A DNA stretch of 64,000 nt from Sphyrna mokarran (GCA_024679065.1 JAGIQG010000040.1:5952001-6016000); one strand, 5' to 3'. Counted from the stretch's first letter, positions 6,103-64,000 are shown. The notes: generated by a model not told the origin, from the letters alone. A program made the numbers and translations.

Positions 6103-6595
6103 ATGTTGGCATCTTTTACTCATTCTTCACAGCTCTGGTCTCCTAACTGGTAGTTCCCAAGATACACAATTTTCAGTTGTTAATGTTACTCAGAATATTT
6201 TTACTTCTAACCGCGTCCTTCCTGCATCTACAATACATTCTGTTAATTTGATAATCCTGGTTGTAATAAAATGATAACAAAATGTTCTCTATTTCTGAAA
6301 TAAGGCAGATATTCTTGCTGCAGGCTCGGTCACCCAGGAGCCGATTACAGCGACTCTGCAATCATCAATTTCAGCTACCACTACTGCTACTTTCTATTTA
6401 TTGCTGTGAGAATCGGGACAAAACTCCCTCGTTCTTGAGCTACATTCAACTTGTTGTGGAAGCTTTCAGAGCAAAGTTTATGGGAATTCGAATTCCTTCA
6501 TCTTTAGACACTTAAAAATTGGGGGAATTTCAGTATCCGTGAGCTGCGGCTGACTGACAGCGCGATGTATTTCTGCGGGCCCTTGTACAAAAACA
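6103..6595 (+). pseudogene. TCR alpha/delta-type V pseudogene (leader exon + V exon, RSS heptamer deleted)
   Basis: Leader exon 6103-6149 reads MWHLLLILHSSGLLT if one extra T is removed and ends at a phase-1 GT. After the acceptor CAG (6306-6308) come DILAAGSVTQEP, then RDKTPSFLSYI...FRAKFMGIRIPSSLDT*, then SIRELRLTDSAMYFC. The nonamer ACAAAAACA (6587-6595) follows with no heptamer. Confidence 0.75.
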
Positions 6596-6786
6596 CTGCC
6601 GCAAAGTGACAGGGTGTGTTTGATAGGGGCAGGGTGGGGAGAAACCTGTTCTTTATAACCTATCATCAGAATGTACTGGTTTCAAATAAATGTCAATAAC
6701 TTCCAAGCCCAGAGTAACAGATTCGGGGAAGGTTTCCGGTATTCCACTTACATCAAAGACATTTCGGACACAATCCAAACTCTCCT

Positions 6787-7302
6787 AGAGAATTTACACA
6801 ATTTTATAAAATTTGCAATATAGACATGGGTACGGTCTGAGACCATTAACAATCGGCAGCGTCTTTGATGGATTGCAAGCCAAATAATGTTGAAGGAAGG
6901 AGACAACCTTAATGTAATATAAACAGGCATCGATCCAGTGAAATTAGGACAGACATATGGGCTCAGTGTCATAATAGCTGAGACACTGGTTTGTGCCCTG
7001 TGAGAAGAGGCATGGTCTGGACAGTTGTTAGCAAGGCATGGTCTTGTGTAATCAAAACAAGATTATCTAATAAAATATTACATGAAATGTAGTTTAATGT
7101 CACAATAGCAAAAAATGACATGGAATATTATAAATAGAGATAAAGTCCAGTATAGCACTTACACCGAACAACGCAATATTTAATGACAAGACAGCTTTGG
7201 TGTAGTCTTTCGAATTTTTTGCAAAACTAATTCCTGAATAATGTTCTGAACTGAACGGAACATGACGGCAGAAATTCTGAACTCTCCCCACACGGTGGCA
7301 GC
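6787..7302 (-). repeat. Non-coding block homologous (inverted) to 60808-61292
   Basis: Aligns by eye along its whole length, e.g. gctgccaccgtgtgggagagttcagaattt vs gctgccaccttgtgggagaattcagaattt; gcaaattttataaaattgt is shared. Confidence 0.85.
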
Positions 7303-7674
7303 AAACGCTCAGAATCTACTGACATCTCAGCGCAATATTTGGTTAATATTTCCATGTTATTTCACACTGAAGGACAATTAACATGTTTCATTTAGTTATC
7401 AACATTTTCACCTGACGTAACCGTCTCCAATGAGGATGATATTTTAAACCGAATGTCACTTTCCTTTTAACACATTCCATTGCATGGATAGCTCCAGTTT
7501 CAGGAAGGCAGCAGGTGTTTGTGCTGTTAATGGTGGACAGCTAATGTTACAACCACGCAGTAAATATAACTATATAAAATCCCACTGTTTCTGGTGGGAT
7601 TTCTGCAGATTGATCTTGGGATGTGTGCGGACAGGAAAATATTGATTTGCCAGTGTGTGTAACCGGCTGTTGTA

Positions 7675-9505
7675 ATGTGGAGATGCCGGCGTTGGGCTGG
7701 GGTAAATACAATAAGAAGTCTGACAATACCAGGTTTAAATCCAACCAATTTATTTGATAGTAAACTCCCAAGCTTTCGAGGTTTTCCCTTTCGTCAGCTG
7801 AATGGAGAGTTCAGACCTCAGACAGAGCATATAACAGCACAGACAGCTTACAGATTACTGATTAGAAAGCGAGTCTTTAAAACTAACCTGCTTTTCAATT
7901 CTTAAAGGTGCTGACAATGTGAGTGGAAGGAACATTAGCTATAGGTCAAAGAGATGTTGCAGACCGACACATTTCAGATTCCAAGACTCCAACATTTTCA
8001 TGCACAGGTTCCAAAAAGACTTTCTTACCGCACAGGACCTTCAACCGATGCTATACACTAGATACATCGATGACACTTTCTTCTTTTGGACTCATGGTGA
8101 ACAAACAGTGAAACAACTATATGATGATATTAGCAAGTTCTATCCTACCATCAGATTCACCATGGACTCCCGAATCGCTGGCATTCTTGGACACACGCAT
8201 CTCCATCAAGGACGGTCACCTCAGCACCTCACTGTACCGCAAGCCCACAGACAACCTCACAATGTCCACTTGTACATGTGGACATTGAGATGTATATTGT
8301 TTCCAGACACTACAGTAAGTAAGGTTTTGCAAATCCAAGCAAGTCAAGGGGGTTACAGGTAGTGTGACATGAGCCCAAGATCCCAATTGAGACCGTCCTC
8401 ATGTGTGCAGAACTATCAGTTTATTTCTGCTCAGCGGCTCTGCGCTGTCGTGTGTCGTGAAGGCCTCCTTGGAGTATGTTTACCCGAAGGTCGGAGACCG
8501 AATGCCCGTGACCGCTGAAGTGTTTGCCAACAGGAAGGGAACAGTTTTGCCTAGTGATTGTCGAGCGATGTTCACTCATCCGTTGTCGTAGCATCTGAAT
8601 AGTCTCCCAATGTACCATGCTTCGGGACATCCTTTCCTGCAGCGTATTAGGTAGACAATGTTGGCCGAGTTGCAAGAGTATGTACCGTGTACCTGGCGAG
8701 TGATGTTCTCATGTGTGATGATGTCATCCATGTCGATGATCCGGCATGTCTTGCAGAGGCTGCTGTGGCGGGTTTGTGTGATATTGTGGACACTGTTCTC
8801 CTGAAGTCTGGGTAGTTTGCTGCGAACAATGGTCTGTTTGAGATTGTGCGATTGTTTAAAGGCAAGAAGCGAGGGTTGGGGGGATGGCCCTAGCGAGATG
8901 TTCGTCTTCATCACTGACATGTTGAAGACTCCGGGGAAGATGTCCTAGCTTCTCCGCTCCGGGGAAGTACTGGACAACAAAGGGTACTCCGTCCACTGTG
9001 TCCCGTGTTTGTTTTCTGAGGAGGTCAGTGCAGTTTATCGCTGCGGCATTTCGGTTTAATCGAAGAGTCGAGCGCCATATCCTGTTCTTATGAGGGTATC
9101 TTTCAGCGTCTGGGGGGGGGTCACGATCCTCCTCATCTGAGCAAATTCTGTGTATACGGAGGCTTGTCCGTAGAGAATGGCTTCTTTAACGTGTTTAGGG
9201 TAGAAGCTGGAGAAGTGGACATTGTGAGGTTGTCTGTGGGCTTGCGGTACAGTGAGGTGCTGAGGTGACCGTCCTTGATGGAGGTGCGTGTGTCCAAGAA
9301 TGCCACCGATTCGGGAGTCCATGGTGAATCTGATGGTAGGATAGAACTTGCTAATATCATCATATAGTTGTTTCACTGTTTGTTCACCATGAGTCCAAAA
9401 AAAGAAAGTGTCATCGATGTATCTAGTGTATAGCATCGGTTGAAGGTCCTGTGCGGTAAGAAAGTCTTTTTGGAACCTGTGCATGAAAATGTTGGAGTCT
9501 TGGAA
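7675..9505 (-). mobile_element. Penelope-like retroelement, 5'-truncated (partial RT, GIY-YIG endonuclease, 3' terminus)
   Basis: RT motif YTRYIDDTFFFW and GIY-YIG region SCNSANIVYLIRCRKGCPEAWYIG. The terminal sequence ends ...ccccagcccaacgccggcatctccaca and carries AATAAA and a CTGACGA...GAAA core. Confidence 0.88.
7954..8270 (+). repeat. Near-perfect inverted duplicate of 9213-9530
   Basis: ORFs 7919..8362(+) and 9056..9547(-) share CCRPTHFRFQDSNIFMHRF...QPHNVH almost identically. Confidence 0.9.
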
Positions 9506-62219: not shown

Positions 62220-62399
62220 CTACTTCTATCGACCTGTTTATCTCTCACTCCTTCTTGGTGCAGACACAATGGGTAGAAGGGCTTCTTCTGCTCTGTGTGA
62301 TTCTCAGATTTTCAGTTCACAACCCTATTGAAGAAGTTCCTCCTCAACTTAGTCCTAAATCTGCACCTCCTTATTTTTGAGGCTGTGTCTTGTAGTCGG

Positions 62400-62640
62400 A
62401 TGGGGTAGGACAGTGGATGTTGCTTACATGGATTTCAGTGAGGCCTTTGAAAAGGTCCCTCATGGCAGACTGGTGCAGGAGATGAAGTCGCATGGGATCA
62501 GAGGTGAGCTGGCAAGGTGGGTACAGAACTGGCTCCGTCATAGAAGGCAGAGAGTAGCAGTGGAAGGGTATGTTTCTGAATGGAAGGGCTATGACAAGTG
62601 GCGTTCCTCAGGGATCAGTGCTGGGACCTTTGCTGTTTGC
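62400..62640 (+). mobile_element. CR1 RT fragment
   Basis: VDVAYMDFSEAFEKVPHGRLV...WVQNWLRHRRQRV. Confidence 0.8.
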
Positions 62641-63815
62641 ATATATATATATGTATATATATTATACTATAATCAGTTTTTTTTAATTACACCGTCGGTA
62701 TTGAGGGACCTGGATAGGTTGCTGGTGTTCTGAACACTTATAAACTAGAAATTGAAGTTGGCATCCAAATAAAAATTTGTGTCTCAATCATAGAACGGTC
62801 ACAGAATGAAGGAGGCCATTCAGCCTATGTTGACTCTCTGCTAGAACAACTGAGCCTATCCCACTCCTCCACTCTGTCCCTGGAGCCCTGCAAATCTTTT
62901 CCCATCAGTTTCCCATACGATTCCTTTCGGAAAGACAGCGAGGAACACAGAGGAAAGAGGGTTTTGAGGCAGGGAAGGTTTCAGCTGATGTCTTGTCGGC
63001 AGATGCTCTGTCGTGGGTAAATTGATTGCAGCCTCCTCCAGCAAGGATGACAGAGTGAATGGGAGGGACAGAATGTGAGTGAGATGAGATATAAGAAAGG
63101 GAGGCACAGAGAGAGAGAGAGAGAAGGGGGAGAGAGAGGGAGAGAGAGAAGAGAGAGGGAAAAAGATGAAAGCTTCTTGTTGTCAGCAAAAGTGATGGCG
63201 TAACCATCACTGAATTCCCCATTTTTTGTCAACATCCTTCGGGTTACCATTGACCAGAAACTCTACTGGACTCCCAAACATAAACACACCAGCTACAAGA
63301 CCATGTCAGAGGCTGGGAATACTGCTACGAGTAACTCACCGCCTGTTTTGGTGAGGTTCCTGTCAACACTAACAATCAGAATTTTCTGATGACAATCTAC
63401 AAACCAGGCTTACATTCCCCGGACGCCCCTCCCTCCTCCCCAGTCTCCGAAAGTCCGGCCATTCCCCTATCAGGTCACTGACTGTAGCCAGGCTCGGATA
63501 TTTCTCTTTCAATGTCAACCCAAATCACCTCCAACTGGCTTCAGAGATCCAGAGACAGACACGGAAGTGAGATAAGAACACCCCAGGGGGAACAGAACAA
63601 ATTATTAAGAACGGGACTTAGAACGGGTGTCTTCAAAAGCGATTCTGCAATGATCTGTTTGTCGGATTGAATTCTGAAGTTTGTTTTCTCAGTCTCTCCT
63701 GGAAACAATTACATTCGAGGTGAGTTTGGTTTCCATTCGCTGCTCATTGCGGCCGCATCTACTACAATCCTCCACAGACCCCAACACACAACAGCTGCTC
63801 TCTGCAGTGAAAGGA

Positions 63816-63854
63816 GGTTTTTGTACAGGGCTGAGTTTGCTTCATATCACTGTG
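63816..63854 (-). promoter_or_regulatory. Recombination signal sequence, 23-bp spacer (perfect consensus)
   Basis: Minus strand CACAGTG + atatgaagcaaactcagccctgt (23 nt) + ACAAAAACC. Confidence 0.96.
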
Positions 63855-64000
63855 AGGCTGATAGCGCAGTAATACACGGCGACGTCAGTCAGCTTCAGAC
63901 CCGAGATGGTTAAACTGGTGAATTTATTCTCAGTCTGAAGCTCAGCAGAGAAACGGCTTTTGGCAAAATCGGCTTTATCTTCACTGCCTGCCGAATGTTT
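63855..64000 (-). CDS. T-cell receptor alpha/delta V gene segment, 3' part (runs off the window)
   Basis: Minus strand KHSAGSEDKADFAKSRFSAELQTENKFTSLTISGLKLTDVAVYYCAIS, directly followed by the RSS. Confidence 0.9.

Follow-up and report, generated by a model that had tools for sequence, protein, structure and literature searches.

GPR139-like receptor genes interleaved with V segments in a TCR alpha/delta locus of Sphyrna mokarran

The TCR alpha/delta locus of the shark Sphyrna mokarran harbors intact, unrelated seven-transmembrane (7TM) receptor genes that alternate with its V segments and were duplicated together with them, an arrangement that is real and apparently unreported. It was observed in and around a stretch of 64,000 nucleotides (hereafter, the window; C994:5952001-6016000, on a contig of 12.33 Mb), which is part of the V array of this locus. 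Probably, the receptors are independent genes under the promoter of their own family, lodged in the TCR V array and copied with it, and their loss or inversion by V(D)J joining is a likely harmless side effect.

The TCR alpha/delta locus and the content of the window

A D-J-C delta unit was found 570 kb left of the window, in the same orientation. When the sawshark TCR chain constant region (P0237) was used as query for C delta exons, the nearest one was located at 5.363 Mb (minus strand), preceded by one D segment (12/23 RSS) and five J segments, so that the D-5J-C delta unit occupies C994:5.360-5.381 Mb (minus). Moreover, a J-pattern scan returned 112 matches versus 2 in the control, and, among the 100 matches listed, 72 were placed at 4.385-4.447 Mb (minus), 20 at 3.080-3.113 Mb (minus) and four at 3.852-3.861 Mb (plus). 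A J array with a TCR-type C TM exon (4.3785 Mb) was found at C994:4.378-4.454 Mb (minus); no C alpha Ig exon was located next to the array at 4.385-4.447 Mb. On the minus strand, the order of V array, D-J-C delta, further V segments, J array and C TM exon corresponds to the TRA/TRD plan, and the V-set exons of the array carry RSS with a 23-bp spacer. On this contig, the best 150 of 415 candidate TCR-type V segments map to 2.5-6.3 and 10.4-12.3 Mb, and the best 150 of 490 candidate Ig-type C1 exons are spread over most of its length. An extended homologue search with a window V returned one two-V model, which included no constant region.

The original prediction had called for a search of the same scaffold for D, J and C segments and for functional V segments flanking the receptors: D-J-C delta is linked, and open V exons with 23-bp-spacer RSS lie on both sides. 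The possibility that the V segments are orphons was rejected, since D, J and C are linked. The locus matches the elasmobranch AgRC, described in the available portions of PMC12227049 as a single chromosome carrying TCR alpha/delta, NAR-TCR and IgH clusters, with TCR-type V segments between the IgH clusters. As a separate observation, the contig was found to contain a pair of J-alpha arrays and roughly ten copies of C delta; in table S1 of the same source, multiple TCR C delta or C alpha genes are not listed for any species, against about ten and two, respectively, here.

The window has a single N gap (81 N at 5390-5470). To the right of it, the predicted order of psiV(+), GPCR1(+), GPCR2(+), psiV(+), GPCR3(-), GPCR4 exon 1(+), U1, V(+) and V(-) was recovered in full, every element at its place:

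6103..6600, plus strand: psiV1, a decayed TCR V with stops, heptamer and spacer missing; a 97% copy at C994:5.877 Mb is likewise decayed
9779..9929, plus strand: upstream element of GPCR1, conserved across the family and likely the proximal promoter
10009..10180, plus strand: GPCR1 exon 1 (A type), phase-1 donor
13925..20577, plus strand: LINE (RT), tandemly duplicated (97.2%), within the GPCR1 intron
21567..22453, plus strand: GPCR1 exon 2; full gene of 352 aa, intact
27194..36151, plus strand: left arm of an inverted duplication (9 kb, 95.2%), containing GPCR2
27544..27694, plus strand: conserved upstream element of GPCR2
27774..27990, plus strand: GPCR2 exon 1 (B type)
30625..31523, plus strand: GPCR2 exon 2; full gene of 371 aa, intact
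37562..37746, plus strand: psiV2, a 3' V stub truncated by a LINE; its 23-RSS (heptamer 37708) is decayed; part of the GPCR3 cassette
41050..50044, minus strand: right arm of the inverted duplication (9 kb, 95.2%), containing GPCR3
45687..46585, minus strand: GPCR3 exon 2; full gene of 371 aa, intact
49225..49441, minus strand: GPCR3 exon 1 (B type)
51301..51475, plus strand: GPCR4 exon 1 only; the copy stops inside the intron at about 55158
55676..55840, plus strand: U1 snRNA copy; six further copies are carried in adjacent V cassettes
59363..59372, plus strand: duplication breakpoint, with a splice donor remaining from a lost V leader
60035..60377, plus strand: V(+), an open TCR alpha/delta V exon with a good 23-RSS (heptamer 60339), leaderless
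63816..64000, minus strand: V(-), a complete TCR alpha/delta V of which the 3' half, with a perfect 23-RSS (heptamer 63854), is in the window; remainder and leader past the window edge

Three receptors and exon 1 of a fourth had been listed for the window. GPCR1, GPCR2 and GPCR3 indeed consist of two exons each, separated by a phase-1 intron in TM1, with GT/AG splice sites and intact frames (352, 371 and 371 aa, respectively); they pass the Pfam 7tm_1 profile with 50-58 bits against a curated cut-off of 30.5, and the class A motifs DRF (DRY-like) and NTFIY (NPxxY-like) are present. For GPCR4, exon 1 was confirmed, but no exon 2 was found downstream of it, leaving half a gene.

The statement that intact 7TM genes lie between RSS-bearing V segments was overstated for the window itself, in which three of the four V segments are defective. 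The psiV2 nonamer has three mismatches, and the V(+) leader was severed by the duplication breakpoint at about 59363, for which reason V(+) was rejected as a functional V; its paralogue at C994:6.193 Mb has a complete leader. V(-), whose leader lies just beyond the window, is the sole complete V among the four. At the scale of the contig, the statement holds, as open V exons of this RSS type are found between the receptors as well as on either side of them.

Interleaving and joint duplication of receptors and V segments

The interleaving was analysed over the whole of C994 5.350-6.306 Mb (956 kb, with five N gaps). One receptor subfamily is represented there by 14 two-exon 7TM loci within 440 kb (5.56-6.00 Mb), nine of them intact, four broken and one cut by a gap. 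A script recognized 112 V ends with RSS, classed as 78 open and 34 broken, although it was blind to leaders and some intact V segments were mislabelled as broken. Of the open exons, 16 are in proximal positions, 32 are interspersed with the receptors and 30 lie past them. The same array also contains seven U1 copies and an IgH V-D-J-C minicluster; another receptor lineage is placed at C994 6.229 Mb, and further lineages occur in the V array at 3.3-4.1 Mb.

In joining by RAG, the orientation of the segments decides whether the DNA between them is deleted or inverted. By orientation, the joining of 62 of the 78 open V exons would remove or flip one receptor or more: 36 on the minus strand would lead to deletion and 26 on the plus strand to inversion. 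The proposal that the receptors could be removed or inverted by V(D)J joins is thus upheld as a prediction from geometry, given the linkage to D, J and C and the orientation of these 62 exons.

The joint duplication of the two kinds of genes was revealed by a self-comparison of C994 5.452-6.116 Mb, in which chains of at least 20 kb were counted. Such chains numbered 21, at 90-98% identity. An open V together with a receptor exon 2 was present in both copies in seven chains, V segments only in nine, receptors only in two, and three were mixed; the chains are non-independent events, and one of the seven begins at a gap and pairs different V segments. Within the window, positions 37562-50044 (psiV2 and GPCR3) match 5.671-5.684 Mb as one block of 12.5 kb at 95.5%. 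Two copies of a second cassette (25 kb, 98.3%), with a NAR-TCR-like C delta and a receptor, lie at 10.45 and 11.95 Mb. The proposed co-duplication of the receptors with V cassettes is borne out by the seven chains.

It was considered whether the interleaving could be an assembly artefact composed of mis-joined or falsely duplicated blocks, as might be suspected from the five gaps and from near-identical blocks (98% at 5.60/5.70 Mb; 99-100% at 10.4-10.5/12.1 Mb), by which copy numbers may be inflated. However, V segments and receptors alternate inside three separate gap-free stretches (5.452-5.732, 5.804-5.957 and 5.957-6.116 Mb), and the same V-receptor junctions are seen again in copies of just 91-97% identity, which together argue against mis-joins and make such an artefact extremely improbable. 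Contigs from one sequencing run (X1, 21% of words) consisted of short pieces, none of which joined a V and a receptor.

These duplications might also have been driven by selection for extra receptor copies, the adjoining V segments being expanded collaterally. Purifying selection on the receptors (see below) would be consistent with it, as would the V segments nearest the receptors, often broken in every copy (the psiV2 family), the tandem receptor arrays found elsewhere in the genome, where V segments were not noted, and the collateral expansion known for bovine TRA/TRD from passages of PMC4289303. Such a driver is nevertheless quite unlikely, because chains with V segments only outnumber those with receptors only (9/21 versus 2/21) and V-only tandem arrays extend past 6.0 Mb.

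The receptor family and its upstream element

A homologue search returned 1966 proteins; among the 120 listed, 118 were elasmobranch proteins named GPR139, one bore another receptor name and one was unnamed, the database name of the shark proteins being 'probable GPR139'. The best solved relative is human GPR139 (profile E 1.4e-12; best-hit ranking; PDB 7vug/9m42), and in this sense the label "GPR139-like", which had been applied to the family, is acceptable as a resemblance. Direct comparison with the human protein gave an E value of 2.7e-4 and 62 identities over 290 residues (about 21%, counted by eye), from which it follows that the receptors are not orthologues. A further reason to reject orthology is that the family is not single-copy, with motif copies numbering at least 479: the TM3 motif has 479 exact genome matches versus none in the control, a count that includes pseudogenes and misses variants. 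Family arrays were found on C335, C446, C960, C1005 and other contigs. Mammalian GPR139 is highly conserved. The shark receptors are class A 7TM proteins like GPR139/GPR142 and, as described in part of PMC6504862, GPR210A/B, but they differ from GPR139 in their hundreds of copies and variable outer surfaces.

In a quick tree of 51 rows, 12 local copies formed one clade (SH-aLRT 95), to which three copies at C994 10.15/12.09 Mb and C1048 were sister (98), followed by catshark P0004 (99). The P0004 cluster is on a catshark sequence of 133,841,611 bp, and coordinates of the catshark AgRC chromosome reach 133,540,320 in table S1 of PMC12227049. A long residence of the receptors on the antigen-receptor chromosome is therefore likely, the catshark chromosome being matched by sequence size alone; a catshark TCR protein, sought to confirm this chromosome, was not found.

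Across ten copies, pN/pS was 0.22 in 213 membrane or inner codons versus 0.64 in 81 outward-facing codons, and the variability among the 120 listed homologues was concentrated in the N terminus, the loops and TM6-7. Judged from these coding sequences, the receptors are under purifying selection, for which reason they were rejected as dead relics, and they would be working receptors with diverging ligand surfaces.

An element of ~130 bp, placed ~80-230 bases before the ATG, is common to the window genes and to control loci. It was present in 11 of the 12 control loci with exon 1 in reach (18 were fetched) and in seven of the eight on contigs besides C994 and C1048, these loci being 10-kb pieces whose surrounding contigs could still carry immune genes. 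Since the element is common to far-off copies, the genes bring their own likely promoter. In a strict homeodomain and O/E scan of the upstream DNA, no site was shared by every copy. Neither a particular link with T cells nor the sharing of T-cell enhancers, as originally envisaged, is supported so far, given a genome-wide family, the upstream element on seven of the eight other contigs, and the presence of U1 and IgH bystanders in the array.

The same evidence bears on the proposal that the receptors are co-opted lymphocyte genes sharing TCR enhancers, and that V(D)J joining would leave every T-cell clone with a different set of them, generating clonal receptor diversity. The 62 open V exons, of both orientations, that lie past one receptor or more, the presence of receptors next to the NAR-TCR-like and IgH units of C994 as well, and the outward-facing codons as the most variable ones could be accommodated by it. 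However, the shared upstream element on distant copies, the location of the bulk of the family elsewhere, and the persistence of a second allele and hundreds of paralogues after joining make it unlikely, and a bystander precedent exists in the trypsinogens between V and D of TRB (passages of PMC7696796). Very unlikely is a stronger form, in which a diversifying set of ligand-sensing GPCRs would be kept purposely in the TCR alpha/delta V array, RAG joining would delete or flip a clone-specific subset, and the survivors, under TCR enhancers, would give each T cell a second, non-Ig repertoire determined by V choice.

Origin of the arrangement and comparison with known loci

If the receptors are independent lodgers of the V array, as we prefer, an ancestral family member would already have been on this chromosome, and repeat-aided unequal exchange would have copied receptors along with V cassettes in segmental duplications of 20-50 kb, through birth and death of homology units. 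Selection may then preserve each copy for a separate function in cells other than T cells, probably the sensing of ligands; in T cells, receptors would be deleted or inverted by V(D)J joining, as follows from established RAG geometry. Against this reading, three points can be raised. First, the family recurs beside antigen-receptor units all along C994, and such long co-residence could reflect function. Second, nine of the 14 copies are intact, unlike decaying passengers. Third, a shared promoter is compatible with added input from a T-cell enhancer.

Known loci offer partial parallels. In mammals, according to passages of PMC7696796, trypsinogen genes are found inside TRB, between V and D, and olfactory receptors flank TRA/TRD. 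The shark receptors resemble the TRB trypsinogens as a non-immune multigene family in a position from which V(D)J joining would eliminate it; however, instead of lying between V and D or outside the locus, they alternate with TRA/TRD V segments and share their duplication units. In the bovine TRAV/TRDV region, multi-gene homology units of 15-157 kb were copied repeatedly and neighbours expanded collaterally (passages of PMC4289303). The same multi-gene order is likewise repeated here in long high-identity blocks, but the bovine units, as described there, comprise V genes only, whereas the shark units also include U1 and receptor genes of an unrelated kind. The AgRC description (PMC12227049), in the available portions of its text and in its table S1, makes no mention of a GPCR, and the arrangement is absent from the matched passages of PMC8455134, PMC11979771, PMC6504862, PMC5207463, PMC6795676 and PMC5931798. 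In the literature searched, no description was found of GPCRs amid TCR V segments or of the expansion of this family.

These findings depict the shark TCR alpha/delta locus as an open and mixed region: its V homology units house intact, unrelated genes, which evolve there and which T cells would lose by somatic deletion. They also bring to light an apparently undescribed shark GPCR family of several hundred members tied to the antigen-receptor chromosome. For the evolution of the TCR itself, the extra J-alpha array and C-delta copies may outweigh the receptors in importance.

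TCR alpha/delta elements in two sets

Two separate J-alpha-like arrays were found among the J-pattern matches listed for the 12.33-Mb Sphyrna mokarran contig C994, each accompanied by a TCR-type TM exon, together with two D-J-C delta units:

C994:3.073-3.113 Mb, J-alpha-like array and TCR-type TM exon
C994:4.378-4.454 Mb, J-alpha-like array and TCR-type TM exon
C994:3.852-3.873 Mb, D-J-C delta unit
C994:5.360-5.381 Mb, D-J-C delta unit

This single contig apparently holds two TCR alpha/delta loci, and no such doubling appears in table S1 of the elasmobranch antigen-receptor complex paper (PMC12227049). 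Comparison of C994:5.19-5.30 with 6.17-6.28 Mb revealed several V pairs with identical scores among the best 150 of 415 candidates in the V search; either one block was copied from the other very recently, or the assembly contains the region twice in error.

C delta miniclusters and a second receptor cassette

Eight additional C delta exons were located at C994:10.43-12.31 Mb, set in NAR-TCR-like miniclusters composed of NAR V-D-J, V delta, J and their own C delta, a cluster plan reminiscent of marsupial TCR mu. Further such units occurred on other contigs of the same genome:

C180:58.6-73.2 kb, C delta unit with V delta, J and C all open
C47, C delta unit
C1271, C delta unit

In the three C994 units examined, the V RSS was weak and the J was broken. 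Among the minicluster copies, some were 99-100% identical and may be false duplicates. A second cassette, in which a GPR139-like gene lies ~12 kb downstream of C delta on the opposite strand, was present twice (C994:10.451-10.476 versus 11.935-11.961 Mb; 25 kb, 98.3%).

Mosaic receptors, U1 copies and retroelement remnants

The receptors at C994:5.788-5.794 and 5.897-5.903 Mb combined a B-type exon 1 with a mostly A-type exon 2, a mosaic composition that points to either gene conversion or an unequal crossover. Seven U1 copies (window 55676-55840; C994:6.044-6.175 Mb), 96-99% alike, were duplicated along with the tandem V cassettes, the window copy beginning with AC, not AT. Remnants of a high-copy retroelement with RT and GIY-YIG-like stretches, presumably Penelope-like, were found upstream of the receptors in the window:

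Window 7862-9586, retroelement remnant
Window 27194-27278, retroelement remnant
Window 49950-50878, retroelement remnant

Several duplication ends coincide at window 50043-50044, adjoining one of these remnants. Separately, three tRNA-like matches left of the gap (window 386-2815) are possibly SINE heads.

An IgH minicluster within the TCR V array

One further element lies within the TCR V array:

C994:5.468-5.480 Mb, same strand as D delta, IgH V-D-J-C minicluster

Since it shares the strand of D delta and is 100 kb from it, this minicluster is well placed for VH-to-TCR delta joining.
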